A stretch of 43,321 nucleotides of DNA. It comes from Candidatus Pacearchaeota archaeon. Its GTDB lineage: Archaea; Nanobdellota; Nanobdellia; Pacearchaeales; GW2011-AR1. The notes under the pieces were generated by a model, which had not been told where the DNA came from, made no database searches, and saw only the letters and a list, made by a program, of their open reading frames with translations. Positions 11,523-43,098 of the stretch are shown here, in pieces (position 1 is the stretch's first letter; the number at the start of each line of letters is the position of its first letter). A program made the position numbers and the translations under genes. The stretch is from NCBI GenBank assembly GCA_050124795.1, contig JASFEO010000010.1:1-43321 (forward strand). Reading direction: 5' to 3'.

Positions 11523-11530
11523 TTTATAAA
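11523..11530 (+). promoter_or_regulatory. TATA box of the Thr-rich leader ORF
   Basis: TTTATAAA 21 nt before ATG 11552, the same spacing as at genes 532 and 1929. Confidence 0.7.
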
Positions 11531-11551
11531 CCCTGTTTTCTTAATTAATTT

Positions 11552-11599
11552 ATGACTTATACTTTTTTAACTAAAACTACGAAGACCACCAAAGCGTGA
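11552..11599 (+). CDS. Putative thrS leader peptide MTYTFLTKTTKTTKA
   Basis: 15-codon ORF with 7 Thr codons (ACT x4, ACG, ACC x2), ending 85 nt upstream of thrS; own TATA box. Confidence 0.8.
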   Translation: MTYTFLTKTTKTTKA

Positions 11600-11655
11600 G
11601 CTCTTCATTTCTTTAAATGATTAGCAAAAAATATTTACAACTAATGAGAATTAAA

Positions 11656-11674
11656 TTTATAAAACGTAAAGGAG
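11656..11674 (+). promoter_or_regulatory. Second TATA box and SD-like site for thrS
   Basis: TTTATAAA at 11656-11663 (21 nt before ATG 11685) and AAGGAG at 11669-11674. Confidence 0.55.
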
Positions 11675-11684
11675 TTAAATAAAT

Positions 11685-13421
11685 ATGAAAATTTTATGTT
11701 TGCATGTGGATTATGTAAAATTCAGGGCTTTGAAAAAAGCTTTAAAGAAAACAAAAGATTTAAATGAGGACGAGAAAAAAGAAAAACAAGTAAAAGATGC
11801 GCTTGTTGTTATGACTGCGGTTGAAAAGGGAGAGAGTAATGTTGGCATTGCAGTTGAGAAATTAATTAATGAAATTAAAAATATTGCAGAACAGGTTAAT
11901 GCAAAGAATGTTGTTTTATATCCTTATGCGCATTTGTCAAAAAATTTGTCAAGTCCTGAAACTGCAATTAAAGTTTTAGAGGAAGCTGAAAAAAAGTTGA
12001 AAAAAGATTTCAAAGTTTTGCGGGCGCCTTTTGGATATTATAAAGAATTTGAAATGAAAGTCAAGGGTCATCCCTTAAGTGAATTATCGAGGGAAATTGA
12101 AGTTTCAGGAAATGAAGTTGAAGAGGAATATACTAAAGAAGACCATGAAAGACTAATTAAGAGATTATCCAAGGTTAAAATGTCCACTCAAAAAGCTCCG
12201 GGTGGGATGAAAACAAATATTGAATTGGGGCGGGATTTGGATTTGTATATAATCAGCGAGGTTGTTGGTCCGGGTTTGCCTTTGTTCACTCCAAAGGGTG
12301 CGACAATCAAACGAGAGTTAGAAAGATTTGCAATTGATGAAGAACTTAAAAGAGGTTATTTGCATACGGACACTCCAATTATTGCAAAAAGTGATTTGTA
12401 TAAAATTTCCGGGCACTGGCAGCATTTTAAAAATGACATGTTTGTCTTAGATGTTAATGGCGAGAAATTTGCATTAAGACCTATGACTTGCCCTTTTCAG
12501 TTTGTTTTGTATAAAAGAAAACCAAGGAGTTTTAAGGAACTTCCATTGAAGTACGCAGAGATTGCGAATTTATTTAGAAAGGAAAAATCAGGAGAGCTTC
12601 GTGGGTTGACAAGGGTTTGGCAGTTTAAGCTTGCAGATGCCCATCTTATTTGCACGCCCGAACAGCTTGAAGGAGAGTTTGAAGGAGTGCTGGACTTAAT
12701 AAAATATTGCATGGAAAAAGTTGGGTTAAATGAGAATGATTTTTGGTATAGGTTTTCAAAGTGGGATCCGAATGATAAAAAAGAAAAATATATTCAGAAT
12801 CCAAAAGCATGGAGGAGTTCTGAAGCAATGATGAAGAAAATTCTGGATAAATTAAGATTAAAATATGTTGAGGCAAAAGGAGAAGCGGCTTTTTATGGAC
12901 CCAAACTGGATGTTCAATACAAGGATGTTTTCGGAAAGGAGGACACAATGTTCACAATTCAAATTGATTTTGCGCTTCCTGAAAAATACGACATGACTTA
13001 CAGGGACAAGGACAATAAAGACAAAAGACCAATGATTATCCACAGGTCATCTATTGGAGCTCCGGAAAGATTGATCGCATGTTTGCTTGAAAAAAATCAG
13101 GGGAATTTAAAGACATGGCTTTCTCCTGTGCAAGTTAAGATTCTTCCAATGACTAATAAAAATCTAGAATATGCAAAAAAAGTTTTTTCAAAATTAAAAG
13201 AAAATAATATACGTGTTGAAATAAATGAAAGAAACGAATCTATTGGAAAAAGAGTTAGAGATACTTTAGTTCAAAAAGTCCCTTACATAATAACTGTCGG
13301 AGACAAAGAAGAAAAAGATAAAAGTTTGGCAATCCGAGTTCGAGGGGATAAAAAGTTAATTAACAAAGGAGTTGATGATTTTGTTGAAGAATTGAAAAAG
13401 GAAATTAGTGAGAGATTATAA
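11685..13421 (+). CDS. thrS: Threonine--tRNA ligase with archaeal-type N-terminal editing domain
   Basis: YPYAHLS and RAPFGYYKEF...KGHPLSELSR editing domain; LRPMTCP, FRKEKSGELRGLTRV, GEAAFYGPKLD, MIIHRS core. Confidence 0.97.
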   Translation: MKILCLHVDYVKFRALKKALKKTKDLNEDEKKEKQVKDALVVMTAVEKGESNVGIAVEKLINEIKNIAEQVNAKNVVLYPYAHLSKNLSSPETAIKVLEEAEKKLKKDFKVLRAPFGYYKEFEMKVKGHPLSELSREIEVSGNEVEEEYTKEDHERLIKRLSKVKMSTQKAPGGMKTNIELGRDLDLYIISEVVGPGLPLFTPKGATIKRELERFAIDEELKRGYLHTDTPIIAKSDLYKISGHWQHFKNDMFVLDVNGEKFALRPMTCPFQFVLYKRKPRSFKELPLKYAEIANLFRKEKSGELRGLTRVWQFKLADAHLICTPEQLEGEFEGVLDLIKYCMEKVGLNENDFWYRFSKWDPNDKKEKYIQNPKAWRSSEAMMKKILDKLRLKYVEAKGEAAFYGPKLDVQYKDVFGKEDTMFTIQIDFALPEKYDMTYRDKDNKDKRPMIIHRSSIGAPERLIACLLEKNQGNLKTWLSPVQVKILPMTNKNLEYAKKVFSKLKENNIRVEINERNESIGKRVRDTLVQKVPYIITVGDKEEKDKSLAIRVRGDKKLINKGVDDFVEELKKEISERL

Positions 13422-13465
13422 TCAATTATAACAATCTTTAAAAATGATTGAAAAATTAGAATTCT

Positions 13466-13930
13466 ATGACAAATCCAAAAATAGCTAAAGAAATTTATAA
13501 TAGGCTTGAGGGGAGAAAAATTCCTGAAGATCCTGTTGAGTTTCAGAGATTAGCCTTGGGCAGCAAAAGAATCCGAAAGTTAGATAATTTAACCGGAAAG
13601 ATCAACGATAAAGCATCTGCAGGATATAGAGAACTTGATTTTTTATTAGAAGATTATTGCTCTTCGTGCAACCTTGAAGAAAACTGCGATTGGAATAAAC
13701 AAGTCAGAATGGCTGCAGGAGAGAATTATCCTTTTTGGTTAAAAAACTGGCCGGTTGTTGAATTTCCCCTTTATTCTGATGAACCTTATTTTATGAACGG
13801 AAAAACTGTTATGTGCACGCATTATCAATCAGATAAATTAAATCAGGAGAGCGTTGAAATCTCCGAGCAGCCTCTTTTAAAATTAACCGAAATAATTGAA
13901 GAGAAACAAAAGAATCTTAAAAAAGCATAA
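13466..13930 (+). CDS. Hypothetical protein, possible Cys metal-binding motif
   Basis: CSSCNLEENC...C pattern; own TATA-like element. Confidence 0.65.
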   Translation: MTNPKIAKEIYNRLEGRKIPEDPVEFQRLALGSKRIRKLDNLTGKINDKASAGYRELDFLLEDYCSSCNLEENCDWNKQVRMAAGENYPFWLKNWPVVEFPLYSDEPYFMNGKTVMCTHYQSDKLNQESVEISEQPLLKLTEIIEEKQKNLKKA

Positions 13931-14236
13931 TCATACATGAAACTGGTCAATTGAATATCTCAAAATTTTCTCCAAGACATTTAAATCATCAATAACGGGA
14001 AATCTGTAAATTTCTGTTTTGCCGAAATAATGCTCATGATTTGATTTTTGAAGCGACACAACAATATCATAGCATTCAGGATTATATCTCTCAGCTTCTT
14101 TTTTTGCAAACAAATCATAAAAAATAATATCTGGTTCTTCATTTGTTCCGTCGTTATACATTTCGTGAGACAAAAGAATCCTCTTTCCTTCTAACAACGG
14201 AATTAATAATTTCTTTAGCTTTGGTATCTTTTGCAT
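13931..14236 (-). CDS. Hypothetical protein
   Basis: ORF from ATG 14236 (MQKIPK...), convergent and abutting with the preceding gene. Confidence 0.6.
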   Translation of the reverse strand: MQKIPKLKKLLIPLLEGKRILLSHEMYNDGTNEEPDIIFYDLFAKKEAERYNPECYDIVVSLQKSNHEHYFGKTEIYRFPVIDDLNVLEKILRYSIDQFHV

Positions 14237-14324
14237 GTTTAGAAAATTAAATTTTACTTTAAAAGAATTTATATTCTTGGGAAAACAACTAAAAATATTT
14301 ATAATCATTTTTCTTAAAATTAAA

Positions 14325-14585
14325 ATGATTGAATACGAAACAAGAGTTAATGGAAGATTTGTTAGTGTTATGCAAATAATAAACAGAGACACTTTGACTA
14401 TGGAAGAAGGAATATTCCCTTATGAAGTCAGCGCAGTTGGGTTTGACATAAGAAATAAACCCTATGCATTTAATTTTACTGTTTTTTATGATTCCAATAA
14501 CGGGGAGAAAAAACTTGAAGCAATTGCTGCAGAAGAAGTTTCCAAAAGATTAAAAAGAAGAGAAAAGAGATATAAAAGAAAATGA
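14325..14585 (+). CDS. Hypothetical protein
   Basis: ORF from ATG 14325 (MIEYETRV...), ATGA overlap with next gene. Confidence 0.6.
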   Translation: MIEYETRVNGRFVSVMQIINRDTLTMEEGIFPYEVSAVGFDIRNKPYAFNFTVFYDSNNGEKKLEAIAAEEVSKRLKRREKRYKRK

Positions 14586-15094
14586 ACCTGCAATTTTATT
14601 TAGAAAAACTTTTTACATCATTAGAATTTGAAGAATTTAGACGAGAAAATCCTGATTCATATTTTGCGTCCGGGTTTGTTGTTATTGATAAAGAGGGCAA
14701 AGAAAAAGACAAAGTTCATATTGATTATTTTATTGAGTCAACTAAAAAGATGTTTAGTTTTCAGTTGGAAAACGATTGCGAGAAAGTTCCAATCGAACAA
14801 ATGCCTGAAATTGCGCCAATAAAAATAAATGATAATGTTGATTTTGATTTTTCAAAAATTGAAGAAATGATTCTTGAAAAGATGGAAAATGAGAATGTCA
14901 AAAGTAAAGTTCAAAGAATTTTATTATCTTTGCAAAATAAAGACAAAAAGAATTTTTTAATTGGGACAGTTTTTATTTCTAATCTTGCAATGCTTAAAAT
15001 TACAATTGATTTGGAGGAAGAGAAAATAATTGATTTTGAAAAAAAGAGTTTTATGGATATGTTTAAAGTGCTTCGCAAGGGAGATAGAAAATGA
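14582..15094 (+). CDS. Hypothetical protein
   Basis: 170-aa ORF, translationally coupled on both sides. Confidence 0.75.
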   Translation: MNLQFYLEKLFTSLEFEEFRRENPDSYFASGFVVIDKEGKEKDKVHIDYFIESTKKMFSFQLENDCEKVPIEQMPEIAPIKINDNVDFDFSKIEEMILEKMENENVKSKVQRILLSLQNKDKKNFLIGTVFISNLAMLKITIDLEEEKIIDFEKKSFMDMFKVLRKGDRK

Positions 15095-15210
15095 AAATTA
15101 ATTGGAAAAAGGTTTTTGTTTGGATGGTTATTTTATTGTTTATCGGAACAATTATCGCAGTTGCATTAATTAATATTGACAAGATTTTTATTTTGAATAA
15201 AACTCCTTAG
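15091..15210 (+). CDS. Small single-TM membrane peptide (39 aa), not in ORF track
   Basis: MKINWKKVFVWMVILLFIGTIIAVALINIDKIFILNKTP; ATGA overlap; GGGAG SD-like site. Confidence 0.65.
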   Translation: MKINWKKVFVWMVILLFIGTIIAVALINIDKIFILNKTP

Positions 15211-15244
15211 AAGAATTTTTAAAACAATTTCTTCTTCTTAATTT

Positions 15245-16081
15245 ATGCATGATGAAAAATATTATCTTGATAAATTAAAAGTTTTATTAGGAAGAAGTGT
15301 TAAGAAATTAATTGATGGAAAAAATCCTGCTGATGTTGCAGTTGCTTTGTCAGGTGGAATTGACAGCACAATTATTGCAAAAGTTTTGAAAAATCATGGA
15401 GTGAATAAAGCCTATGTTATTGGTGTTGAAGGTTGTCATGATTTGTTAGCAGCAGAACAGGTTGCAGAAGAACTTGGTTCGGATTTGAAAAAAATTATTT
15501 TAAGTGAAAAAGATGTTGAAGAGAATTTGCTTATTCAGGCGAGGATATTAAAAAAATTATATGAAGAAAATGAGGAGAAGATAAAGCCTGAAACTCCAAA
15601 GACAAAATTGAATCCTGTTTCTGTGTCATCAAACTTTATGCTTTTTTTTGTTGAAAAATTCGCAAAGGAGAAATATATTTTTTCAGGTCTTGGGGCAGAC
15701 ACTCTTCTTGCTGGTTTTGCAAAGTATTTTAAATTAAATGAAAGTGAAGCAATTAAGCAGGTGAAAAAAGAGTCAAGGAAATTACTTAGGTTTGATTATT
15801 TAGAGGATGTTGCAACTGCTAAGTTTTTTGGTAAAAAGATTTTAATGCCGTTTTTAGAAAAAGAAGTTTCAGAGTTTTGCATTGATATTCCTTACAAATT
15901 AAAATTCAATAAAAGAAGAAAATATATTTTAAGAAAACTTGGTCTTGAACTGGGGTTAAGTGAGGAAGCTTCATTTAGAAAAAAGAAGTCTGCACAATAT
16001 GGAACAGGAATTATGAAATTAATGAAGAGGGTTGCAAAAAAGAACAACATGCACATAAGTGATTATGTTCAGACTTGTTAG
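15245..16081 (+). CDS. Asparagine synthase C-terminal (PP-loop ATP pyrophosphatase) domain protein lacking the glutaminase domain
   Basis: VALSGGIDST, FSGLGADTLLAGF, MPFL, RKKKSAQYGTG. Confidence 0.85.
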   Translation: MHDEKYYLDKLKVLLGRSVKKLIDGKNPADVAVALSGGIDSTIIAKVLKNHGVNKAYVIGVEGCHDLLAAEQVAEELGSDLKKIILSEKDVEENLLIQARILKKLYEENEEKIKPETPKTKLNPVSVSSNFMLFFVEKFAKEKYIFSGLGADTLLAGFAKYFKLNESEAIKQVKKESRKLLRFDYLEDVATAKFFGKKILMPFLEKEVSEFCIDIPYKLKFNKRRKYILRKLGLELGLSEEASFRKKKSAQYGTGIMKLMKRVAKKNNMHISDYVQTC

Positions 16082-16678
16082 TTATTTCTCAACAATAAAA
16101 CTTATATTCACTTCGCTGTTTAATTTTTTTATAATTTTAAAACCTGTTTTTTTAAATAAGCCATGAATTTCGTCTTCATCAAATAAGTAATAATATCTTT
16201 TTCCTTTGTCCTGCCAATTAACAAAAATTTCCTTTTTTCTTTTAATAAATCTTTTTGAATTTTTATTCCAGACTGAGACAAAAACTCTTCCGCCTTTTTT
16301 TAAAACTCGATAAACTTCACAAACTGCTTTTTCTCTTTTCTTAGAATCAGGAATGCAATAAAGAACATGTGTGAAAATTACTGAATCAAAAAATTCATTT
16401 TCAAACGGCAAATCATCTGCATCATTAACAAAGAATTTTATTTTTTTTATTTCTAATTTTTTTGCTTTTTCTTTTGCGAACTTAATCATTTCAGATGAAA
16501 AGTCTGAAGCAAAAATTTCAGCATTTGTATATGTAAAATTGCGGCCTGCGCCGCAACCTAGGTCAAGCAACCTGCCGGTTTGGGATTTTATGAATTCTGT
16601 GTTTTTAATAGAAGAGGAATTTTTGAATTTGTGCCATTCTTTTGCTATGTTGTTCCAGACTTGTTTTTGTGTGGGCAT
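16082..16678 (-). CDS. Class I SAM-dependent methyltransferase
   Basis: LLDLGCGAGRN, DADDLPFENEFFDSV, RVLKKGG. Confidence 0.9.
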   Translation of the reverse strand: MPTQKQVWNNIAKEWHKFKNSSSIKNTEFIKSQTGRLLDLGCGAGRNFTYTNAEIFASDFSSEMIKFAKEKAKKLEIKKIKFFVNDADDLPFENEFFDSVIFTHVLYCIPDSKKREKAVCEVYRVLKKGGRVFVSVWNKNSKRFIKRKKEIFVNWQDKGKRYYYLFDEDEIHGLFKKTGFKIIKKLNSEVNISFIVEK

Positions 16679-16964
16679 GGATAAGGAAGATAGAGAAGAG
16701 TTTTAAGATTTTCGTGGGTTTGGGTTCTTTAGAATCAATAGAAAATAAATGAGTCCATAAACAAACTAAAAAATATAATTTACGTCCAAAATTAAGGTTT
16801 TAAATTTTTTAATTTTTTTATCGTCATAAAAATGTGTTTCCAAAATGAACCTTTTTTTTATTTAATTGCGCGCAAAAGAAAGATTTTGTTTCAAAAACTA
16901 AAGACAGAAAAAATGTTTTTGTTAAAAGTAAAATTGATTTAAAGAAGTTAGATAATTTTTTCAA

Positions 16965-17144
16965 CTAATTAACAGCCTCATCAATAGCAGTTGCATAAAC
17001 AGTGTCTATATCAAAAAATAATCCTGCTTCAATCCCTTTTGAAGCATTATGAATTTCATCTTCATTTAATCTTCTTCCTATTCTTATCATTGCTTCATTT
17101 TGCAAATCTTCAACACAAACAGAAAAAATTATTCTTTCATCCAT
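16965..17144 (-). CDS. Small acidic hypothetical protein (59 aa), not in ORF track
   Basis: MDERIIFSVCVEDLQNEAMIRIGRRLNEDEIHNASKGIEAGLFFDIDTVYATAIDEAVN. Confidence 0.65.
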   Translation of the reverse strand: MDERIIFSVCVEDLQNEAMIRIGRRLNEDEIHNASKGIEAGLFFDIDTVYATAIDEAVN

Positions 17145-17229
17145 ATTCTTGATTGTCCCTGTTGATTATATAATTTTATTAAAACTTTAAAATAATAAAA
17201 ACCATTTTAACCCTCGCGACAGCGTCGTT

Positions 17230-18510
17230 TTACTCCCCTTCAAATTCCACAAGTGAAAAAACAGGATACTTAGAAATTTTTTCTTTTCCTTTCAAATCAG
17301 GCAAATCAACAATAAATGCAAATTCAACAATTTCTCCTCCGAGTTTTTCAACTAAATTTCCTGCTGCCTTTGCTGTTCCTCCTGTTGCAATCAAATCATC
17401 AAAAATTAAAACTTTTTGTCCTGGATGAATTGCATCTTTGTGAATTTCAATTGAGTCTGTTCCATATTCTAAATCATATTCCTCTCCTAAAGTCTCAAAT
17501 GGCAGTTTTCCTTTTTTTCTAATTGGAATAAAACCAATTCCAAGTTCATGCGCTAAAATGCTCCCCATTATAAAACCGCGGGATTCAATTCCTGCAACTA
17601 AATCAATTCCTTTGTTTTTATAACGGTTCACGAAAATTTCTATTGCCTTGTCCATTGCCTCTTTGTCTTTTAATAAAGTTGTAATGTCCCGGAACATGAC
17701 TCCTTCTTTTGGCCAGTTTGGCACAGTTCGAATTGAATTTTTAATTTCAAGTTTTTCTGCATCCCCACTAAAAGACTCAATAACATTTATTAGAACTTTT
17801 TTCACGCCCTCGGCATTATCATTAAAAACTTTTAAAATCTGCTCCCATGTCACAGGTTCTGTTGCAGGTCTCCAGCAGTCGTAATCAGTCGGCATTGCAA
17901 TAACTGCATAAGGAATTTCTGCTTCATTTGCTAAAATCGCCTCAGGCGCTGTGGACATATTTACCACATCTGCTCCCCAGGTTTGAAACATTCTGCTCTC
18001 TGCAATAGTTGAAAATCTCGCGCCCTCGATAGTTATTATAGTTCCCCTAAAATGATATTTGTAATCCAAATCCCTGCAGCTCTGAGCCAATCTCTTTCTA
18101 AGTTCCCTTGAAAACGGCCAACTCATTCCAGTATGCTTTGCATTTTTTGGTTCGAAAGTTTTGTAAAAAGAAATATCACGATGCCGTGTAAAATCAATAA
18201 ACTGATCCAATATTACAAATTCCCCTGGCTTTATGTTTTCTTTTAATGAGCCGCACGCAGTAGTTGCTAAAATATATTCACATCCTGATTTCTTTAATGC
18301 AAAAATATTTGCCTTGTTATTAACATAAGTCGGAGGGATTGTGTGCTGTCTGCCATGACGCGAAATAAAAACAACATCAATTCCTTTTATCTTCCCAGTT
18401 ATTAATTTTGACGACGGCATTCCAAAAGGCGTATCAACTTCAACTTCCTTATAATCTTCAATTAATTTCGGATCATCAAGACCAGAACCTCCAATAATAC
18501 CTATTTTCAT
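17230..18510 (-). CDS. mtnP-apt: Fused S-methyl-5'-thioadenosine phosphorylase / adenine phosphoribosyltransferase
   Basis: [29 protein letters not shown] (MTAP); [25 protein letters not shown] (APRT); start moved to ATG 18510. Confidence 0.92.
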
Positions 18511-18531
18511 GAAAAGAAAATTGAAAAGTGT

Positions 18532-18578
18532 TTTATAAGGATTATTGTGATGCAAAGAAACTTTGCAATTAAACATAA
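18532..18578 (-). repeat. Intergenic repeat copy 1 (hairpin + TATA)
   Basis: TTTATAAGGATTATTGTGATGCAAAGAAACTTTGCAATTAAACATAA. Confidence 0.95.
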
Positions 18579-19045
18579 CGGATACTTGCAGAAGGTCCGA
18601 AATATAACTGAAGTTTATTCTCATTGTATGGAACTTGAATTAAATCTCTTTCTATATCAGAAACATATTCAGGAACACTTATTTCTAAAGGTCCAAATTT
18701 CAATAAACCCTCAAGGGAATTAAATAACTCTCTCTGTTTTTTAGGAAGAGCTTTTTTCTCTTCATATGGAATAAATAATCCCTTGCTTGTTTCTATCCAG
18801 ATGTCTGGGAAATTTTTAATTCTCAAATGAGTGTGAATATATTCACCTTCTGCAAATTTTTTTAGATCATAACTTTCATTAGGATGCCCGGGAACTTTTT
18901 TAGGATATTTAAAATCAACTCTAAATCTTTTTCTTGGAAGACCTGTTCTTTTTTCAAGTTTTTCTGCTGTTTTCCCAGCTTGCGCCAAAGTGATTATATA
19001 TTTAGGAATCCGACCTGAAGCAATATCAAATTCTTTTAAAGTCAT
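18569..19045 (-). CDS. Hypothetical protein between repeat copies
   Basis: 158-aa ORF; its stop codon lies inside repeat copy 1. Confidence 0.7.
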
Positions 19046-19066
19046 AATTATAAATTATAAAATGTA

Positions 19067-19113
19067 TTTATAAGGATTATTGTGATGCAAAGAAACCTTG
19101 CAATTAAACATAA
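19067..19113 (-). repeat. Intergenic repeat copy 2
   Basis: 46/47 identical to copy 1. Confidence 0.95.
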
Positions 19114-20058
19114 TTAACTTAATCTTGCGCTCTCAATTGAAACCACTTTTGCAGAATATTTGCTTGCAAGTTTTCCTGCTCTTTCAATACTCAAGCCATT
19201 TGTAATTCCGTAAAGAATTCCTGCAGCATACATGTCTCCTGCTCCGTTTGTGTTGGCAAGTTTTACTTGAAAAGGATTTACTTTATAGATTTCTTTTTTA
19301 TGTTTTATTAAACTTCCTCTTTCTCCTAATTTTACAACTGCAGTTTCGCAATAGTTTGAGAGTTCATTTAATGCACCTTCATCTTCTTTATTTGTGAATG
19401 CCCTTGCTTCTTCTTCATTTGCAAAGACTATATCAACATAATCGCCAAGCAAATTTTCTAAATTAAAAGTTTTTTCAACTAGTTTTGGACTTGATAAATC
19501 CAAAGAGACTTTTGTTTTATTTTGTTTTGCGATTTCTATTGCATGAAAAAAAGATTCTCTAGTATCAGGGAATCTAAGCAAATACAATTCAGGATGAAAA
19601 ATTTTTGAATTAATTACTGCCTTTTCATCTAAATTGTTTTTTCTAAAATATGCAGCTGCGCCCAGGTCTGCTAAAAAAGTTCTTTCTTTATCCGGAGTTA
19701 TAAAAGTTATAGTGTTTCCGGTTTTTCTCTTTTGGTCTTGCAGAATAGAAACAATTATGTTTTTTTCTTTTAACTCTTTAATGAATTTTTGTCCATAAAA
19801 GTCAATTCCAACTTTTCCCATAAAGCAAGTTTTTCCGCCAAGATAATTTACTCCCCAGATTGTATTTGCAGAACTTCCTCCGCAGGAAATATTTTGAGGA
19901 GCGCCAAGTGTATTTAACATTTTTTCCATGCCCGGGCTATCAATAGAGTTTGAGTTTCCTTTGTCTATATTAAATCTCTTTAAAAATTCATCATCTACAT
20001 TATAAGTTAAATCAACAAGAGCATTTCCAATTCCAATCACATCAATTTCTTTTATCAT
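19114..20058 (-). CDS. PfkB/ribokinase-family kinase (adenosine kinase-like)
   Basis: GIGNALVD, GGSSANT, FANEEEA, NTNGAGDMYAAG. Confidence 0.9.
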   Translation of the reverse strand: MIKEIDVIGIGNALVDLTYNVDDEFLKRFNIDKGNSNSIDSPGMEKMLNTLGAPQNISCGGSSANTIWGVNYLGGKTCFMGKVGIDFYGQKFIKELKEKNIIVSILQDQKRKTGNTITFITPDKERTFLADLGAAAYFRKNNLDEKAVINSKIFHPELYLLRFPDTRESFFHAIEIAKQNKTKVSLDLSSPKLVEKTFNLENLLGDYVDIVFANEEEARAFTNKEDEGALNELSNYCETAVVKLGERGSLIKHKKEIYKVNPFQVKLANTNGAGDMYAAGILYGITNGLSIERAGKLASKYSAKVVSIESARLS

Positions 20059-20079
20059 AAATTAAATTAATGAAAAGAT

Positions 20080-20122
20080 TTTATAAGGATTATTGTAATG
20101 CAAAGTAAACTTTGCAATTAAA
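20080..20122 (-). repeat. Intergenic repeat copy 3
   Basis: TTTATAAGGATTATTGTAATGCAAAGTAAACTTTGCAATTAAA; one substitution and one loop insertion relative to copy 1. Confidence 0.93.
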
Positions 20123-20123
20123 A

Positions 20124-20723: not shown

Positions 20724-20773
20724 ATTTTTGAAATAGAAAAACACTTTAAATAGATTATTCTAATTGATTATAT

Positions 20774-23965: not shown

Positions 23966-24012
23966 TAATTATTTTTAGCAAATTATAAAAACATCTTTTT
24001 TATTTTAATATA

Positions 24013-25549: not shown

Positions 25550-25670
25550 GTAAAATTTTAGAGGTCAACTTAATTAATTTTTATACATCTAAATTTATTA
25601 AAGAAATTATGTAGTTAAGTTTTTATAAGGCATTTGTTTAATTTATCTATTCGACCAAGGGGGCAAAAAT

Positions 25671-27665: not shown

Positions 27666-27714
27666 ATAGTTACTTTTGGTAACTATTAGTTACATTAGGT
27701 AACTTGGGGTAACT
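27661..27714 (+). promoter_or_regulatory. TATA box followed by phased AGTTAC/GTAACT operator array
   Basis: TTTAAATA 27661-68; AGTTAC at 27668 and 27688; GTAACT at 27679, 27699 and 27709. Confidence 0.7.
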
Positions 27715-27716
27715 TG

Positions 27717-27890
27717 ATGGGGAAAAAAATAAAGATTAAAGATTCTGCTGTAAAAATTGATTCAGTTCTACTTGCAAAGGTCGAAGAATTTATTTGTAAA
27801 GAAGAAAATCGCCTTAGGTTCGTAAACAAAAAACAATTGATTGATTTGGCAGTTCATGAATATCTAAATAAAATGGAGGGTGCAAAATGA
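27717..27890 (+). CDS. Ribbon-helix-helix (CopG/MetJ/Arc-like) DNA-binding protein, 57 aa, not in ORF track
   Basis: MGKKIKIKDSAVKIDSVLLAKVEEFICKEENRLRFVNKKQLIDLAVHEYLNKMEGAK; ATGA overlap with the giant surface gene. Confidence 0.75.
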   Translation: MGKKIKIKDSAVKIDSVLLAKVEEFICKEENRLRFVNKKQLIDLAVHEYLNKMEGAK

Positions 27891-30800
27891 AGATAAAACA
27901 AATATCTTTGATTATGTTTGCTATTGTGATTTTATTTTTGGGGTTCGCACTGGCTTCACCCCCAGTTTGGGTTGGCTCAGGAATAAATTATTATATTGAT
28001 GAAGATGTTTCTTATTACCATAATCTAAGCGCAAACATAACCGGATTTGCAAATGACGTCACTTTTGCGATAGATACTGAATCAAACATAAACTGGACAA
28101 ATGCAAGCGGAACAAATTCTGTTGCCTCCAGTGTTGTCTCGTCATGGATAAAAATTTTGAACTCCTCAAATGGTAATCTGTCTATTAATGCGACCCATGA
28201 CAACCAAACAGGATTTTTTGTAATCCCAATACAGGCGACAAACACAACTGATGAAGAAGGTTCAATTACAAATTTTGAATTTGTAGTTAATGCAACAAAT
28301 GATGCTCCAAATTTTATAAACATAGAATCTGAATATAATCTAACTCAGGGGGCAAATTTTCTTAATTATACAAATGCAAGCGATGAAGAAGAACAATATC
28401 CTCTGCATTTTAATATAAGTTTTTTTAACAATTGTACTCATGCAGGATGGAGTTCAAGAACAAACTGTTCTTTGTTTGATTTAATAGATGTTACAAACAC
28501 TTCTGCAATAATGAATTTTACTCCTACAACAAACGATGTTGGAACATACTGGGCGAATATAACTGTAAATGACTATGGTGAAAATTATTCCTGCCCCCAT
28601 GCTTACTGCGACAACTCAACTTATATGCAAAATAAATCAACATCTCAGATTGTTCAGTTTAATGTTTTATCCTCGCTAACAATAAATGTGACCAACTGCA
28701 CAGGAATGATTTTTCAGGAAAATGAATCCAGCGTCTGCACAATTAGCATAAGAACAAAAGGAGAAACTGATTCAATTAATTCATCAAGTGTTGCTGATTT
28801 AAGAAATTACGCCGGAAGTATATCAAATACATCATGGTTTTACGCAGAAAATAATTCTGTCTCAACTAATTTTACAAAAACATTTTATGTAAATGTAACC
28901 CCTGAGAAAACTGAGATTGGAAATTGGACAATTAATTTTACAGTTATTGATTCAACAGAAGGGGAAGTTTCTTCAGAATTAATTTATGTTTATGTTAATA
29001 GGACAAGTAATGATATCCCTGATTTAACTGATATTGATAACACAAATACTTCAATTGATTTAGAGACAACAATTTCTTTAACTGTTTACGACGATGATTT
29101 ATTAATTCCTGATAAAGATGATTTCAATGAAACAACAAGTTTTGATGTTACAATTTTGAACCAATCAAATTTATCTCAGGAATTATCTTTAACTGGTTTT
29201 GATGTTGATATTTTGAGCATGCCTGTAACTGGCACAAACAGAACAAGCGCAAGAATACAGTTTACTCCGAATTCAAGTGAGATTGGAAACTATACTATTA
29301 ATATAACAGTAAATGATGTTGATAATACCCTTGATTCAGATTTATTTAATTTATCAATTTTTGATAATAATTTCCCTGTTTGGAATCAGACAGAATATTC
29401 ATTTGATTTAATTGTTAACTCAAGTCTTGCAACAACTGCTGCGTTTGGTCCGGTTAATTTAACCGGCGATGGTTATGTAACAGATACAGGAGATACTTTA
29501 ACTTTTGCAAATGATTCAAATGCTCACCCGGGTTTTAGCATGACTTCAGCGGGTTATATTTCATTTACTCCTTACAAGCAGGATGTTGGCTCATGGAATT
29601 TTATAGTAACAGCGACGGATTCATTGGGATTGCAAAACCAGACAACCTTTAGATTTAATATAACTAATGTAAATTCAGAACCAGTAATTTTAAGTCCGAT
29701 AACACCAATAAATGCAACAGTAGATGTTAATTCAAATATTAATGCAACTGAAGACAATTATACAACTTTGACATTATATTTGCAGGACGAGGATTTCAGG
29801 ATTGCATCAAGTAAAAAAGATTATTATAATGAAAGCATTAGTTTTAATTTGACAATAGAAGGAAATAATCCTAATTTATTTAGTTTTACAAAAAATTCAG
29901 GGTTTCCGCTTCCGGGAAATAACCAAAGCCTTTATACTGCAACATTCACGCCAAACGCAAGCGACGTTGGAGGTTATAATATCACAATAAATGTAACTGA
30001 TGAGAGTAATGCCGGTGATGTGCTGCAATTTAATCTGACAATTTTTTCTGCATCAGACGCGCCGATACTAACACCGCTTTCAAATTATACAACCGCAGTA
30101 AACAGAAATTTTTATCTTGATATGAATGCAACTGATGAGGAGGACGGAAATGATTCAACTGGAAATTTAACTTATGCTTATGCATTTAATAATGGAACAG
30201 ATTTCTTTAACTCAACTAATTTTAATTCAACAACCGGTGTGATAAATATAACTTTTAATTCAACACAGGCAGGAAGTTTTTCAATAAACATAACTGTTAA
30301 TGATACAACAAATGAAATTGACACAGATTCGTTTTGGATTTATGTTTATGATGCCCCCAATGTTACTTACCCTGCGACAGGAAATAATTTTGCATTGCAG
30401 GAAAACTCAACAACTAATTTAACATTCACAGCAAACAATTCTGTCGGGACAAATTTAACTTATGAATTTTATATAAATAATTCATTAAAATATAATTTAA
30501 GTTATCATGGAAATGCAACTAATCTGACCTGGTCATTTACCCCTAATTTTTCTGATGAGACTTACGGAAATAATTACAATCTTACTTTGGTTTCTTATCC
30601 AACAGATTCAAATCTTGAAAACAGAACAGAGGTAAATACAACAACAAACTGGGATGTGAATATTTCGCATGCAAATGCGCCGGTTGTTTTCTCAGGATAT
30701 ATAGGAGACAAACAGGCGGCATACACAAGCACAATTGAAATAGATTTGTCATCTTATTTTTCAGATGTTGATTATAATGATGCAGCCTACAATCAGTCAA

Positions 30801-31963
30801 TTAATTTTAGTGTTGCAAGCAATTCTTCATCAAGTTATATTTCTTCAAGTGTTTCATCTGACTGGACCTTGACATTATCTTCATTAATACCAATTTCAGA
30901 AGTTCTCAATGTAACCGGCAATGATTCTTCAACAAATGCAACGAGCAATTATTTTAATGTTGAGTTCACTACTCCATCGACAGTGACAGTTACAACTCCT
31001 ACAAGCGGGGGGGGAGGAACAACAACTATTCCTGTTTCATTAAAAATAATAATGCCCAACCCGGTTTCAGCTTATCAACAGGACAGAATTGTTTTACCAT
31101 TGACACTTTATAACAACGGGCAGAGAACCCTTTCAGGAATTTCTTTATCAAGCCTGATTGCCAAGGATAATGTCCTAAGAGATGACTTAGTGATATCTTT
31201 TGATGAAGATTATTTTACAAGTCTTGCAGTTGGCGAGAAGAAAAATATCACCATGACTGTTGATATTGACACAACTGAAGTCGGAACTTTTGAATTAACT
31301 GTGAATGCGGATGTGGATAACCCAGATTATAGTGACTGGGGGAAACTTTACTTAACAATAAAAGAGAGCAATTCCAGTCTTCTTGAGAAATTAATTTTTA
31401 CTCAGGAGTTTTTGCAGGAGAACCCGGAATGCATCGAATTGGAAGAACTTCTTGATGAAGCAAGAATGTTTTTTGCCAAAGGAGATTTTTTAAGTACTAT
31501 TGTGAAAATTCAGGAGGCAATTAATGGATGCAAAAATGCAATCTCGCAGGAGGCAAGGGCGAAAAGAAGAGAACCAACAGAAAATAAATTATACAGATAT
31601 TTATTAATTGTAAGTATTATTGTTTTCTTTTTGGGATTGGGGTATTATTCTTATAAAAGAATGAAACTCCGTCGCGGAAGCGGGGAATATTTTGTAAAAA
31701 CAAATGACAATAAAAATATTTTTAGAGAAACATCTGCGTTGGTCTCCGCGGGGGCAGGCTTGTCTATGTTGCTCCTCGCAAATAAAAGTATTGTTGGATT
31801 TACAATAAATAATGCAATTACTGAAAATAAAGCGGGGGGGATATGGATTTTAATTGTCTTTTTAATTTTAATCGGAGCGTTTATGGTTTTGTCAAAAAGA
31901 AAAAAAGAGTTAAAAAAAATTCAAAAAATAAAATATTTGAGGAACAGGAATGGAAAATTTTAA
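27887..31963 (+). CDS. Large surface glycoprotein/adhesin with tandem cadherin/Ig-like repeats and C-terminal TM helices
   Basis: Signal peptide; repeated NDAP / FTPNxSxxGxYxINITVND motifs; dense N-x-S/T; TPTSGGGG hinge; SD GGAGGGTG. Confidence 0.85.
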   Translation: MKIKQISLIMFAIVILFLGFALASPPVWVGSGINYYIDEDVSYYHNLSANITGFANDVTFAIDTESNINWTNASGTNSVASSVVSSWIKILNSSNGNLSINATHDNQTGFFVIPIQATNTTDEEGSITNFEFVVNATNDAPNFINIESEYNLTQGANFLNYTNASDEEEQYPLHFNISFFNNCTHAGWSSRTNCSLFDLIDVTNTSAIMNFTPTTNDVGTYWANITVNDYGENYSCPHAYCDNSTYMQNKSTSQIVQFNVLSSLTINVTNCTGMIFQENESSVCTISIRTKGETDSINSSSVADLRNYAGSISNTSWFYAENNSVSTNFTKTFYVNVTPEKTEIGNWTINFTVIDSTEGEVSSELIYVYVNRTSNDIPDLTDIDNTNTSIDLETTISLTVYDDDLLIPDKDDFNETTSFDVTILNQSNLSQELSLTGFDVDILSMPVTGTNRTSARIQFTPNSSEIGNYTINITVNDVDNTLDSDLFNLSIFDNNFPVWNQTEYSFDLIVNSSLATTAAFGPVNLTGDGYVTDTGDTLTFANDSNAHPGFSMTSAGYISFTPYKQDVGSWNFIVTATDSLGLQNQTTFRFNITNVNSEPVILSPITPINATVDVNSNINATEDNYTTLTLYLQDEDFRIASSKKDYYNESISFNLTIEGNNPNLFSFTKNSGFPLPGNNQSLYTATFTPNASDVGGYNITINVTDESNAGDVLQFNLTIFSASDAPILTPLSNYTTAVNRNFYLDMNATDEEDGNDSTGNLTYAYAFNNGTDFFNSTNFNSTTGVINITFNSTQAGSFSINITVNDTTNEIDTDSFWIYVYDAPNVTYPATGNNFALQENSTTNLTFTANNSVGTNLTYEFYINNSLKYNLSYHGNATNLTWSFTPNFSDETYGNNYNLTLVSYPTDSNLENRTEVNTTTNWDVNISHANAPVVFSGYIGDKQAAYTSTIEIDLSSYFSDVDYNDAAYNQSINFSVASNSSSSYISSSVSSDWTLTLSSLIPISEVLNVTGNDSSTNATSNYFNVEFTTPSTVTVTTPTSGGGGTTTIPVSLKIIMPNPVSAYQQDRIVLPLTLYNNGQRTLSGISLSSLIAKDNVLRDDLVISFDEDYFTSLAVGEKKNITMTVDIDTTEVGTFELTVNADVDNPDYSDWGKLYLTIKESNSSLLEKLIFTQEFLQENPECIELEELLDEARMFFAKGDFLSTIVKIQEAINGCKNAISQEARAKRREPTENKLYRYLLIVSIIVFFLGLGYYSYKRMKLRRGSGEYFVKTNDNKNIFRETSALVSAGAGLSMLLLANKSIVGFTINNAITENKAGGIWILIVFLILIGAFMVLSKRKKELKKIQKIKYLRNRNGKF

Positions 31964-32028
31964 AATAATCATAACAAAAAAGATATTTAAAGAGTCAAAT
32001 ATTTACTATTATAAGGAGGGAAAAAGAG

Positions 32029-33621
32029 ATGACTACAGAAAATTTTGAAAAACTCATTTCGAAAAGGGATGGTTTATTAAAGAGAAATCTCAACAAGGAA
32101 TTAAAATTAGCACAAATTAATCTAAAAAAAGACATTAAAGAAAATGAGACTCCAAAAAATAATTTCACTATTAGCAATAATAAACCGGAAAATCCTTTTG
32201 CAAACCAGAAAAAAGTTTTAGCGCCGATGATTGTTAGAGAAGAAAAGGCCGGGGAGATGAAAAATCCCGGAGATGAAAAACCTATTTTAAAAAATGAGAA
32301 TTCAGGGAATAAAAAAGGGATATTTAGTTTTTTGAAAAAAGAGCGGGAAACAATTAAAGGGAATATTTCTAAAGAAACCCCCCCGGAAAAAATCATTAAA
32401 AAGAAAATAGATAATAAAAAGATAAAAGAAGAAAAACTAAAAGTCAGGGTGAGAGATATGAAAAAACCTTGTGGGGTGAAACCAACAAAAGGAATTTTGG
32501 AAAAGGAAATGGAGATTGACAGAAGAATTTCGCGAGAGGTTGAGCCAAGGTTGGAAAAGGAATTTTCTAAGAAGAAAAAACAACGTAGAAAATTGAAGAT
32601 AAGTTCTGAGGAAGAAGTTAAAAAAGAGATTGTAAAAAATTCTGCAAAGCATGTGTCAAGACTCTCAGGGGAAGTTAATGAAATCGCAAGAGATATATCC
32701 CAATTAAAAGGAGAAGTAAGAAAATCTGTTGTGGGGCAGGAGGGAGTAATTGACGCATTTATCTGCGCGATACTTTGCGACGGGCATGTGCTATTGGAAG
32801 GTGTCCCAGGAGTTGCAAAAACATTGATTGTAAAAACACTGGCAGAAGCTTCGGGATGCAGTTCAAACAGGATTCAATTTACAGTTGACTTATTGCCAAG
32901 TGATATTTTAGGTATAACAACTTACACCCCGCAAAAAGGTTTTGAAACAATCAGGGGGCCGATTTTTTCTAATTTTATTGTTGCTGATGAAATAAACAGA
33001 AGTCCTCCGAAGACTCAGTCGGCGATGATTGAAGCAATGCAGGAAAAACAGGTTACAATTGGGAAGCAAACTTTCAAACTTCCTTTGCCGTTTTTTGTAA
33101 TGGCAAATAATAATCCCTTGGAACAGAGCGGAGTGTATGATCTTCCTGAAGCGCAGATTGATAGATTCCTTTTCAAGCTTTTAATTGGCTATCCGGAAAA
33201 CAAAGAAGAAGTAAAAATTATGGAAGAGAATATGACAATAAAAAAGTTTGAGAGTTTTGGTGTAAAGCCTGTTCTTTCCCCTCAGAAAATCACGCGCATG
33301 CAGCAGATAACAAAAGAAATTTATGTTGATGAAAGGATAAAGGAATATATTGTAAGGATAATTGACAAGACAAGAAAAAGAGATTTCGAAAACGGGCAAT
33401 TTATTGAATGGGGGGGTTCACCAAGGGCGAGCATTGGTCTTTTTATTGCATCAAAGGCGTGGGCGCTAATGAATGGAAGAGCGTATGTAATCCCAAAAGA
33501 TGTAAAAGATATTGCGCATTATGTTCTAAGGCACAGGGTGATTTTGAATTATCGGGCGAAGGCAGAAAAGCTTACGTCTGACAGAATTATTGACGAGATT
33601 CTTGATATGATTGAAGTTTAA
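32029..33621 (+). CDS. moxR: MoxR-family AAA+ ATPase with long charged N-terminal extension
   Basis: HVLLEGVPGVAKT, RIQFTVDLLPSDI, ADEINRSPPKTQSA, LPEAQIDRF, SPRAS. Confidence 0.93.
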   Translation: MTTENFEKLISKRDGLLKRNLNKELKLAQINLKKDIKENETPKNNFTISNNKPENPFANQKKVLAPMIVREEKAGEMKNPGDEKPILKNENSGNKKGIFSFLKKERETIKGNISKETPPEKIIKKKIDNKKIKEEKLKVRVRDMKKPCGVKPTKGILEKEMEIDRRISREVEPRLEKEFSKKKKQRRKLKISSEEEVKKEIVKNSAKHVSRLSGEVNEIARDISQLKGEVRKSVVGQEGVIDAFICAILCDGHVLLEGVPGVAKTLIVKTLAEASGCSSNRIQFTVDLLPSDILGITTYTPQKGFETIRGPIFSNFIVADEINRSPPKTQSAMIEAMQEKQVTIGKQTFKLPLPFFVMANNNPLEQSGVYDLPEAQIDRFLFKLLIGYPENKEEVKIMEENMTIKKFESFGVKPVLSPQKITRMQQITKEIYVDERIKEYIVRIIDKTRKRDFENGQFIEWGGSPRASIGLFIASKAWALMNGRAYVIPKDVKDIAHYVLRHRVILNYRAKAEKLTSDRIIDEILDMIEV

Positions 33622-33640
33622 AATTTGCCTTTGGCAAATT
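33622..33640. terminator. Perfect 8-bp hairpin between convergent moxR and serS
   Basis: AATTTGCC-TTT-GGCAAATT fills the gap between the two stop codons. Confidence 0.55.
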
Positions 33641-34895
33641 AGTTTAATTTTAATATCTTAATTCCGTTCATATAGGGAACTAAAACTTTCGGCAATCTAA
33701 CACTCCCATCCTTTTGCTGAAAGTTGTTTAAAATAGCAATTAAAATTCTGTTTGCGACACCGCCAGTTGCATAAATTGTATGCGCAAATTCCTCCTTTCC
33801 CTTTCCGGAAAATTTTATATTTCCCCGTCTTGCCTGAAAACTTGCGGTCATTCCAATACTACCGACTTCCCCCCATCTTTCTTCTCCGGCCATATAAACT
33901 TCCAGGTCTTTTTCTATTGTTGCTTTGTTTGGCATATCATTTGCTCGATGAGTGATAACCCTATGGGGGAGTTCTAAAGTTTTGTAAAGTTCTTTTAAGT
34001 CTTCGAAAATTTGGTTATATTCTTTTTCCTCATTTTCGGGAGTTGTGATATGGGTTAATTCCACTTTATCAAACTGGTGTGTTCTGTAAAGACCTTTGTC
34101 ATCAGCGTGGTTTCCTGCTTCCCGACGGTAACAGGGAGTGTAACACATAAATTTTTTCGGCAATTCCTTTTTATTAAATAGATCATTTTTGAAAACTGCC
34201 AAAACTGAAATTTCCCCTGTTCCAACAAAAACTTTTCCATCTTCAGTTTTATAGACTTCGTCTTCCCCGCCGGGATAATGTCCTGTTATGTAAAGATTTT
34301 CTTCATTCACATAATATGGAGGAATTAATTCAAAGTAACCCTTCTTTCTCCAAAAATCAAGAATGAAATTTGTAATCGCCCTGTTAAGTCTGGCAGCATC
34401 TCCTTTCAACATCCAGCCTCTGTCTCCTGCTGCCTTAATTGCCTTCTTAAAATCTGCTAAATTTAAATCCAACAAAATTTCCCAATTTCTTTTTGGCTTA
34501 AAATCAAATTTAGATTTTTTTATTTCACTTTCCCAATCAACTCTGTCAACATCACTTACCGGAACATCTTTATGCAATACATTTGGAATTTTGTAAACTA
34601 AAGCATTATATTCTTTATCTAACTTCTTAAACTTTAATCCTGTTTCTTTAAGTTTTGCATTATTCTCTCTGCTTTCTTCTACAAATTTTTTAAAATCCTT
34701 TTTTTGTTTTTTTGCGCCATTAACCTTTTCATTCAAAAGATTTCTTTTTCTTCTTAATTCATCTAAATTTTTTTTTACTTTTTTCCATTCTTCATATTTT
34801 CCTAAAAGCAAATCTATATCAACATCCAATTCTCTTGCCTTTATTGAATGTTTAACAATTTTCTGATTTTCCTGTATGTATTTTCTGTCTAACAT
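33639..34895 (-). CDS. serS: Serine--tRNA ligase (standard/bacterial type)
   Basis: N-terminal coiled coil, IPNVLHKDVP, YTPCYRREAG, GLYRTHQFDKVE, FQARR, QQKDGSVRLPKVLVPYM. Confidence 0.96.
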   Translation of the reverse strand: MLDRKYIQENQKIVKHSIKARELDVDIDLLLGKYEEWKKVKKNLDELRRKRNLLNEKVNGAKKQKKDFKKFVEESRENNAKLKETGLKFKKLDKEYNALVYKIPNVLHKDVPVSDVDRVDWESEIKKSKFDFKPKRNWEILLDLNLADFKKAIKAAGDRGWMLKGDAARLNRAITNFILDFWRKKGYFELIPPYYVNEENLYITGHYPGGEDEVYKTEDGKVFVGTGEISVLAVFKNDLFNKKELPKKFMCYTPCYRREAGNHADDKGLYRTHQFDKVELTHITTPENEEKEYNQIFEDLKELYKTLELPHRVITHRANDMPNKATIEKDLEVYMAGEERWGEVGSIGMTASFQARRGNIKFSGKGKEEFAHTIYATGGVANRILIAILNNFQQKDGSVRLPKVLVPYMNGIKILKLN

Positions 34896-34917
34896 TTTAT
34901 TTAAATTATAGAATTTT

Positions 34918-34959
34918 AAAGAACAAATGAAAACTTCAAAACCCCATAAAGATTTTGAA
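34918..34959 (-). terminator. Putative attenuator hairpin plus U-rich tract after the serS leader
   Basis: Minus strand: TTCAAAATC-TTTATGG-GGTTTTGAA then GTTTTCATTTGTTCTTT, starting right after the leader stop codon. Confidence 0.55.
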
Positions 34960-35013
34960 TTAGTATGAACTAGAACTGCTTACAGAACCTGAATTCATAC
35001 TTTTGTTTCTCAT
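34960..35013 (-). CDS. Putative serS leader peptide MRNKSMNSGSVSSSSSY
   Basis: 17-codon ORF with 8 Ser codons including 5 consecutive (AGC AGT TCT AGT TCA), ending 64 nt upstream of serS. Confidence 0.82.
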   Translation of the reverse strand: MRNKSMNSGSVSSSSSY

Positions 35014-35034
35014 GAAGTAAAAGAAGATTTAATC

Positions 35035-35042
35035 TTTATAAA
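35035..35042 (-). promoter_or_regulatory. TATA box of the Ser-rich leader ORF
   Basis: TTTATAAA 21 nt before ATG 35013. Confidence 0.7.
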
Positions 35043-43048: not shown

Positions 43049-43098
43049 TAAGAAATAAAGAATGAGGAGTATATAAAAGTTAATCTAAGATGTGAGAG

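Follow-up and report, generated by a model that had tools for sequence, protein, structure and literature searches.

Cognate-rich leader ORFs before thrS and a second serS in a Pacearchaeota genome: candidate ribosome-based amino-acid sensors on leaderless archaeal mRNAs

Introduction

Can a translating ribosome serve an archaeon as a sensor of charged tRNA? The question is raised by a 43,321-nucleotide (nt) stretch of DNA from a Candidatus Pacearchaeota archaeon (GenBank contig JASFEO010000010.1; hereafter the window), in which thrS, encoding threonyl-tRNA synthetase (ThrRS), and a second, divergent serS, encoding seryl-tRNA synthetase (SerRS), each follow a short open reading frame (ORF) dominated by the amino acid of the enzyme downstream. 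Leader-peptide attenuation is a textbook bacterial mechanism; full-text literature searches found no archaeal leader-peptide attenuator described, and supplements may hold more. The pairing of cognate-rich short ORFs with thrS and serS is real, not chance. We judge it probable, if well short of certain, that both ORFs would act as translated cis-regulatory leaders through which an attenuation that depends on ribosome position, and bears mainly on translation starts, would sense charged tRNA-Thr and tRNA-Ser.

The window is contig C10 of a 1.06-Mb, 38-contig genome (G000) with 32% G+C. A preliminary description made from its sequence called thrS and serS the only two aminoacyl-tRNA synthetase (aaRS) genes in the window and proposed leader-peptide sensing upstream of both; the first statement holds within 12 Pfam and protein searches, of which PheRS beta was not a target.

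Results

Two cognate-rich ORFs at the leaderless start distance

The Thr leader devotes 7 of its 15 residues to Thr (ACT x4, ACG, ACC x2) and the Ser leader 8 of its 17 to Ser (AGT x3, TCA x2, TCT x2, AGC), each beginning 21 nt after a TTTATAAA box; these figures of the preliminary description can be read directly from the sequence, and codon counts bear out its remark that both ORFs use mixed synonymous control codons near their 3' ends, where the cognate codons are bunched. Codons 10, 12 and 13 of the Thr leader are ACG, ACC and ACC, rare Thr codons in this genome (ACC makes up 8% and ACG 5% of Thr codons) that occupy the control positions, where they would sharpen such a sensor. The Thr locus comprises the following features.

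11523..11530, + strand: TATA box P1 of the Thr leader, TTTATAAA, read from the sequence; 21 nt before the leader ATG at 11552
11552..11599, + strand: Thr leader ORF (upstream ORF 1, uORF1), 15 codons plus TGA (stop at 11597-11599), MTYTFLTKTTKTTKA
11591..11604, + strand: H1, a small predicted hairpin with the stop codon within a GUGA loop, from the RNAalifold consensus of three leaders
11600..11625, + strand: H2, a hairpin predicted by folding directly after the Thr leader stop; contains the TTCATTTCTTTAAA tract (11604-11617)
11617..11682, + strand: uORF2, 21 codons, MISKKYLQLMRIKFIKRKGVK; stops 2 nt before the thrS ATG and runs through the P2 TATA box
11656..11663, + strand: TATA box P2 of thrS, TTTATAAA, read from the sequence; 21 nt before the thrS ATG
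11670-11674, + strand: AGGAG, a Shine-Dalgarno-like site within the gap between the P2 TATA box and the thrS ATG
11685..13421, + strand: thrS, ThrRS of 578 aa, single copy, vertically inherited

The box directly before thrS had gone unmentioned in the preliminary description. The Ser locus lies on the opposite strand.

35035..35042, - strand: TATA box P1 of the Ser leader, TTTATAAA, read from the sequence; 21 nt before the leader ATG at 35013
34960..35013, - strand: Ser leader ORF, 17 codons plus TAA (stop at 34962-34960), MRNKSMNSGSVSSSSSY
34962..35001, - strand: hairpin 1, within the Ser leader ORF, codons 5-8 pairing with codons 14-17 in folds of the window and of L070, a homologous serS locus
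34935..34959, - strand: hairpin A, region 2 (UUCAAAAUCUU) paired with region 3 (GGGGUUUUGAA); region 2 begins at the first base past the stop
34905..34949, - strand: hairpin B, region 3 paired with region 4 (CUUUAAAAUUCUAUA, 34921-34907), from constrained folds; ends about 12 nt before the serS AUG
33639..34895, - strand: serS, the second, divergent SerRS, 418 aa (TIGR00414 score 361.7 against a cut-off of 301.65)

The distance of 21 nt carries meaning in this genome. An ATG stands exactly 21 nt past TTTAWAWA in 208 of 1963 such words on both strands, whereas any other gap between 10 and 39 yields 19-50 (about 28 as a rule). ORFs longer than 100 codons are opened by 127 of the 208; because TTTAWAWA plus 21 bases plus ATG marks gene starts, most genes of the genome appear to be leaderless. 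Both leaders show this exact geometry. The promoter spacer consensus of the genome is T-rich, and when the flanks outside the TATA and ATG columns are scored, the Thr leader falls at the 82nd percentile of the 127 true gap-21 promoters and the Ser leader at the 19th, its position weight matrix score nonetheless above those of 92% of 1754 TATA words without an ATG; P2 of thrS reaches only the 8th percentile of the true promoters.

Could such ORFs be spurious, thrown up in AT-rich spacers behind TATA-like words? ORFs of 11-30 codons are no commoner at gap 21 (n = 14) than at other gaps (4-12 each), and therefore position alone proves nothing; Ser-rich short ORFs also exist elsewhere in the genome, and most orthologous loci have no leader. 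Composition at that position argues otherwise. When all ORFs of up to 60 codons opening at TTTAWAWA-N21-ATG are ranked genome-wide by the fraction of a single residue, the Thr and Ser leaders take ranks 1 and 2. With a cut-off of at least 35% and at least 5 residues, one of 1998 intergenic ATG ORFs of 8-40 codons is Thr-rich, namely the Thr leader, and seven are Ser-rich, two of them nested in the Ser leader. The preliminary description had asked for cognate-codon enrichment over shuffled sequence, and enrichment there is: in dinucleotide shuffles of each intergenic spacer, scored for ATG ORFs of 8-40 codons, the observed cognate count is reached in 0 of 20000 for Thr and 18 of 20000 for Ser. 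Four thr and two ser leaders, described below, all stand before the cognate gene; leader homology is significant across deep ThrRS divergence, and the Ser leader is conserved above four-fold sites. We therefore hold a chance origin to be very unlikely.

Thr leaders in other genomes

Homologous leaders precede thrS elsewhere. Among 71 usable of 86 further thrS loci, drawn from 5 genomes and 80 metagenome contigs, one (L115) carries MSSLFLNKKFTTTTA with the TATA box ATTATAAA 21 bases upstream. A pattern for the end of the ORF matched 2 of 400 order-level genomes, G269 and G373 (reversed-pattern control, 0): in G269, the only member of its genus, it led to L165, MSCLKLNTTGTTTTA before thrS with TATTTAAA at 21 bases, and in G373 (L166, C66:3124-3141) to an exact 18-base match with no ORF and no thrS on its short contig, which we set aside as chance or a relic. 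A covariance model of three leaders, applied to 150 family genomes, retrieved L175 (G288) before thrS, MKNSLFTKTRTTTTTK, 16 codons with TTTATAAA at 21 bases; its match in G003 is an ordinary leaderless membrane-protein gene and was rejected. The same covariance model, R1, recovered only its training sequence L115 from 100 loci, and no new leader from relatives of G288.

The four leaders fall into two pairs by DNA similarity. Window and L175 score 51, where 97 other thrS upstream regions taken as a null give a mean of 18.6 and a maximum of 26 (z 14.3), and L115 and L165 score 75 (null mean 18.5, maximum 29; z 18.9), with 23 identical bases around and after the stop codon. The corresponding enzymes are far apart: ThrRS identity is 67% for window-L165, 48% for window-L115, 47% for L115-L165 and 49% for window-L175, and since these values span 47-67% the loci are unlikely to be assembly duplicates of one population. 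All four leaders nevertheless share a plan: the ATG follows a TATA box by 21 nt, the ORF has 15-16 codons, and Thr fills 4-5 of the last 6 sense codons.

The pattern of variation bears on what is being conserved. Codons 12-13 encode Thr in all four leaders, and there window, L115 and L165 differ synonymously only (ACC ACC versus ACA ACG), while the first ten residues vary freely, L115 and L165 differing at 5 of them. Because codons 12-13 stay Thr through synonymous change while the first ten residues vary, the variation fits selection on the codons that a ribosome would read rather than on the peptide product. It is accordingly highly improbable, in our estimate, that the ORFs encode peptides with a function of their own, be they micropeptides or precursors modified by the neighboring synthetase, unrelated to sensing. 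Such a reading could call on the resemblance of the ORFs to real leaderless genes and on their conservation in a few genomes; it would have to account for a peptide unconserved outside the cognate run, and for two unrelated peptides that each match the amino acid of the neighboring enzyme. Both synthetases, moreover, are ordinary full-length enzymes, the window ThrRS 57-65% identical to its nearest family members and the window SerRS above the curated cut-off.

Beyond the ORF, the four leaders share elements of RNA structure. H2 is predicted in all of them, starting 0-5 bases past the stop, at -7.6, -3.8, -2.9 and -10.7 kcal/mol with z-scores of -4.6, -3.0, -1.1 and -6.2; the L115 version is weak, and the window H2 (-7.6 kcal/mol, z -4.6) is equalled by 0 of 200 shuffles. 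In each case the AUG of uORF2 lies, in silico, within the 3' arm of H2, 17-21 bases past the stop; in the window this is the AUG at 11617. uORF2 itself has 21 codons in the window, 21 in L175 and 22 in L165, ending respectively 2 bases before, 1 base before and overlapping (ATGA) the thrS AUG, and the window and L175 versions run across a Shine-Dalgarno-like site as well (AGGAG and GGAGG). H1, with the stop codon in a GNRA loop, is weak in the window, has a 5-bp stem in L115 and L165, where it shares an arm with H2, and is absent from L175. MAFFT left the arms of H2 out of register.

These structures invite an alternative in which the codons are not read at all and the leader regions are functional 5' elements, an extra promoter together with an RNA structure that a protein such as the synthetase, or a tRNA, would bind. 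In E. coli, ThrRS acts as a repressor of its own mRNA by way of a structured operator, the hairpins here are significant on their own, and the most conserved parts are nucleotide blocks around or after the stop codon (the 23 bases of L115 and L165, and a 22-nt box in the ser spacer described below). We nonetheless regard this as unlikely, for the cognate residue is kept through synonymous changes, the sole indel adds a Ser codon in frame, stop codons differ in type and not in place, the thr ORF keeps a length of 15-16 codons in all four loci, and the ATG lies precisely at the distance of leaderless starts. The Thr and Ser codons, furthermore, are complementary to anticodons rather than mimics of them, and a scan of the whole window at Rfam gathering thresholds returned only a tRNA-Glu and no T-box. 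That tRNA-Glu (UUC) lies at 43098-43171 on the - strand and is the sole RNA family match in the window.

The Ser leader and an acquired second serS

The genome encodes two SerRS, the window enzyme and one on contig C16 (10714-11970, - strand). The C16 enzyme is 73% and 69% identical to SerRS of family members, whereas the window enzyme is 31-39% identical to every relative's SerRS and has orthologues of 59-86% identity in other genomes. Five genomes with a window-type SerRS at 74-86% identity have a ThrRS only 43-47% identical to the window's, and the closest ThrRS relatives of the window genome carry the vertical-type SerRS only; from these two facts it follows, as far as sequence comparison can decide, that the window serS moved horizontally, together with its leader. 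The preliminary account of serS needs correcting in this respect, the gene being a horizontally acquired second copy.

Upstream DNA could be read at seven orthologous serS loci, and one of them, L070 (SerRS 86% identical), has a Ser leader: MRNKSMNSSSVSSSSSSY, with 10 Ser among 18 residues and TTTATAAA 22 bases upstream. The two Ser ORFs differ by 2 synonymous changes, a Gly-to-Ser replacement, one in-frame extra Ser codon and TAA to TAG. Leader and spacer are about 87-92% identical between window and L070, compared with 62% (61/98) at four-fold sites of serS, and the 22-nt box at 34926-34905, in the region 4 area, is identical in both. A U-to-C change in L070 converts a G-U to a G-C pair in hairpin A. 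Whole Ser leaders fold with z-scores of -2.4 (window) and -3.6 (L070); in L070 the minimum free energy (MFE) fold is hairpin B (z -3.6, 0 of 200 shuffles equally good), which adjoins a GGAG site there. Changes among leader homologues that are synonymous, cognate-adding and in frame, together with hairpins at the stop codon, are what a codon-sensing leader predicts.

The preliminary description also noted a tract shared by the two spacers, TTCATTT(N0-3)CTTTAAA in generalized form. It is present at 11604-11617 (+) and 34931-34915 (-), and its 3 occurrences in the genome, 2 of them in the window, make a circular test, the pattern having been defined from these sites; L175 keeps the tract, and L070, L115 and L165 do not.

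For the gene divergent from the Ser leader (35059-36006, + strand), the probable start is an internal ATG near 35119 that follows a Shine-Dalgarno-like GAGGTGA. With that start it would be a leadered gene beside leaderless ones, and the palindromic TTTATAAA at 35035-35042 could in principle drive both strands.

Occurrence across aaRS genes

We located 19 aaRS genes in the genome (Ile, Val, Leu, Met, Cys, Glu, Arg, Lys, Tyr, Trp, Phe-alpha, Ala, Asp, His, Pro, Gly, Thr and two Ser), nine plus the window serS named by NCBIfam and the remainder by Pfam family only. The synthetases are archaeal in type (archaeal LeuRS model, 892 bits; class I LysRS, 423 bits), and most of the 19 genes have a TATA-like word about 21 bases before the first ATG. 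The three most residue-biased upstream ORFs of each gene were examined. Three candidates besides the two leaders were rejected: MIIIIKTIT, with 5 Ile of 9 and about 179 nt before valS (C20, 10278-12674), is non-cognate, has no TATA box at the right distance and is probably a chance product of an AT-rich genome; MKPIYKPTLP before ProRS and MASSISLT before the vertical SerRS are weak candidates, each opening with TTG and lacking a TATA box. Two synthetase frames, AlaRS (C4:59164-60934, about 590 codons) and GluRS (C3:65141-66335, about 400), are shorter than usual for archaea and may be split, truncated or compact forms.

A proposed model for codon sensing on leaderless mRNAs

We posit that transcription would start at the A of the leader ATG and yield a leaderless mRNA onto whose 5' end a ribosome loads. 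With ample charged tRNA, this ribosome would reach the stop codon and unwind the hairpin that begins there; with poorly charged cognate tRNA, it would be held up among the Thr or Ser codons, a few codons short of the stop, and the hairpin would stay closed. What follows would differ between the two loci.

In the Ser leader, a ribosome at the stop would free region 3 to pair with region 4 beside the serS start (off), and an early-stalled ribosome would preserve the pairing of region 2 with region 3 and keep the serS start region open (on), a logic that resembles the trp leader. Folds of the window leader constrained by a ribosome footprint of -12 to +15 around the P site behave in this manner: the 2:3 hairpin (A) forms when the RNA is free of ribosomes or a stall occurs no later than codon 12, and the 3:4 hairpin (B) when the ribosome occupies the stop or any position from codon 14 onward.

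In the Thr leader, H2 would mask the uORF2 AUG and completion of the leader would expose it, so that the number of ribosomes completing the leader would set uORF2 translation and hence accessibility of the thrS start. Ribosomes on uORF2 would run over the thrS Shine-Dalgarno-like site and TATA box and end at the thrS AUG. Translation of uORF2 may help thrS (coupling) or hinder it (occlusion), the sequence alone being compatible with either; a homeostatic thr circuit requires occlusion, or a role for read-through over thrS's own promoter.

The same sensor could instead have a transcriptional output, in which read-through from the leader promoter either supplies further thrS or serS transcript, by antitermination at U-rich tracts where the archaeal termination factor aCPSF1/FttA may act on RNA free of ribosomes, or occludes the TATA box of the gene (promoter interference). 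Tandem TATA boxes about 133 nt apart at all four thr loci are what promoter interference would use, U-rich stretches follow the stop codon (U5 in L165), and the 22-nt ser box is TATA-like (CTTTAAAA), 21 nt before the ATG in L070 and 18 nt in the window. The U tracts, however, are short and unconserved (U3 runs in the window; the ser T4 is lost in L070), terminator-like sites number 0 in either spacer, and Shine-Dalgarno-like sites before thrS (window, L175) and serS (L070) argue that leadered transcripts are translated. We rate a transcriptional output as quite unlikely. With no bacterial-type terminator after either leader, the sequence gives no sign of transcription attenuation in its classical form.

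Weighing the attenuation model

Several observations weigh against attenuation by translated leaders, some of them on grounds of distribution. Within the genome, 2 of the 19 located aaRS genes (thrS and the window serS) have a cognate-rich upstream ORF. No cognate-rich leader was present at 29 thrS and 29 serS loci read from 60 same-family or same-order genomes (0/29 each), nor at 70 of the 71 further thrS loci, and a Ser-run pattern applied to 400 class-level genomes matched the window's own genome only. Of the seven serS orthologues, five (L072, L073, L074, L076, L077) have an ordinary promoter directly before serS and no leader; at L071 (1330-1515; SerRS 82% identical), likewise leader-less, a TATA box is fused to a remnant of the post-stop sequence, and the locus appears to be a deletion relic that lost its leader ORF. 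Beyond this genome the searches yielded homologues, L115, L165 and L175 for thr and L070 for ser, together with an absence from most orthologous loci. The leaders are, on this sampling, rare and modular and no general aaRS system; of the leader-peptide sensing first proposed, the leaderless-start signature, the cognate association and the conserved stop-codon hairpins remain in its favor, and generality does not.

Other difficulties are mechanistic. Because thrS has its own TATA box at leaderless distance, it can probably be expressed without the leader, and relatives that have no leader keep this thrS-adjacent box directly before the gene. A Thr-stalled ribosome would fall short of H2, so the sign of regulation would depend on the putative role of uORF2. 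That ORF is cut to 12 codons in L115, and it may be either a genuine relay ORF or no more than a side effect of the conserved TATA box through which it reads (KFIK = AAATTTATAAAA). In the Ser leader, a stall late in the Ser run folds the same way as a terminating ribosome under the standard footprint, and in L070 hairpin B (3:4) is the MFE fold in every ribosome state examined.

The structural record is thin in places as well. Taken whole, Thr leaders show no folding advantage over shuffles (z -0.8 and -0.9), the four Thr leaders, few as they are, gave no consensus structure in RNAalifold, and covariation amounts to a single G-U to G-C change, C-G to U-G changes and paired changes of length. 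Similarity of the window Thr leader DNA to L115 or L165 is non-significant (for L115, 98 of 2000 shuffles were equally good). Finally, the organism is uncultivated and the one sequencing run in which this DNA turned up is of DNA, possibly its source; we infer the transcription start, the translation of the leader, stalling and the sign of the response from the DNA.

The anatomy of the leaders, their non-randomness and their conservation are established, and attenuation is, in our judgement, the best reading of them.

Discussion

Both leaders are good candidates for the first ribosome-based amino-acid sensors in archaea. Taking the Thr and Ser cases together, we put forward, tentatively and with somewhat more doubt than belief, a broader proposal: that archaea would have ribosome-stalling aminoacyl-tRNA sensors on leaderless mRNAs, in two unrelated families. 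The Thr family would work through a hairpin-masked relay ORF tied to the thrS start. The Ser family would work through switchable hairpins in a cassette of promoter, leader and extra serS that moves between Woesearchaeota-like lineages, a self-regulated backup synthetase turned on when seryl-tRNA charging fails, be it by starvation or by a natural SerRS inhibitor.

If this holds, charged-tRNA sensing by the translating ribosome has arisen in the setting of archaeal TATA promoters and leaderless mRNAs too, and genome-reduced DPANN-type archaea, thought to be poor in regulation, tune their synthetase supply. The mobile serS with its leader would be a regulated gene spreading with its own sensor, and the leaders would offer a small portable element for probing the interplay of transcription, translation and RNA folding in archaea.

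Among bacterial systems, the textbook case for a synthetase is the pheM leader of E. coli pheST, which belongs with the thr, his and trp leader-peptide attenuators. Like them, the window leaders would combine a cognate-rich leader before a synthetase gene (pheST being an operon), control codons near the 3' end and ribosome-dependent alternative hairpins; unlike them, they have no terminator, where the bacterial attenuators rely on a G+C-rich terminator hairpin and a U run acting on bacterial RNA polymerase, and they are predicted to be leaderless, where the bacterial leaders are led by a Shine-Dalgarno sequence. Firmicutes place T-boxes before thrS and serS, including second inducible copies, to sense the charging of the cognate tRNA. 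The physiological logic and the target genes are the same; a T-box, in contrast, binds uncharged tRNA directly and needs no translation. In translational attenuation of the erm/cat type, a ribosome positioned on the leader opens a hairpin over the next start and antibiotics are sensed through the nascent peptide. With this type, and with termination-reinitiation coupling, the window loci would share a next start hidden in a hairpin and an upstream ORF that ends at or overlaps the main start, whereas the signal proposed here is the supply of charged tRNA and not an antibiotic sensed by a nascent peptide.

Closer to home, ribosome profiling of Haloferax reports upstream small ORFs, with no such mechanism in its passages on uORFs and attenuation (PMC7261190). 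The closest counterpart on record comes from mycobacteria, where leaderless polycysteine ORFs are reported as Cys-responsive attenuators whose action depends on ribosome stalling and on RNA structures at the following ribosome-binding site (10.1101/834739). The likeness would lie in a short ORF that opens a leaderless mRNA and has codons for the sensed residue in a run, and in several loci under one logic. The mycobacterial leaders are bacterial, have sigma-factor promoters and serve cysteine metabolism operons, whereas those of the window have archaeal TATA boxes and precede thrS and a mobile serS, and at the thr locus a further small ORF is putatively coupled to the gene start. As far as sequence can show, the window leaders fit this leaderless-ORF type of attenuator.

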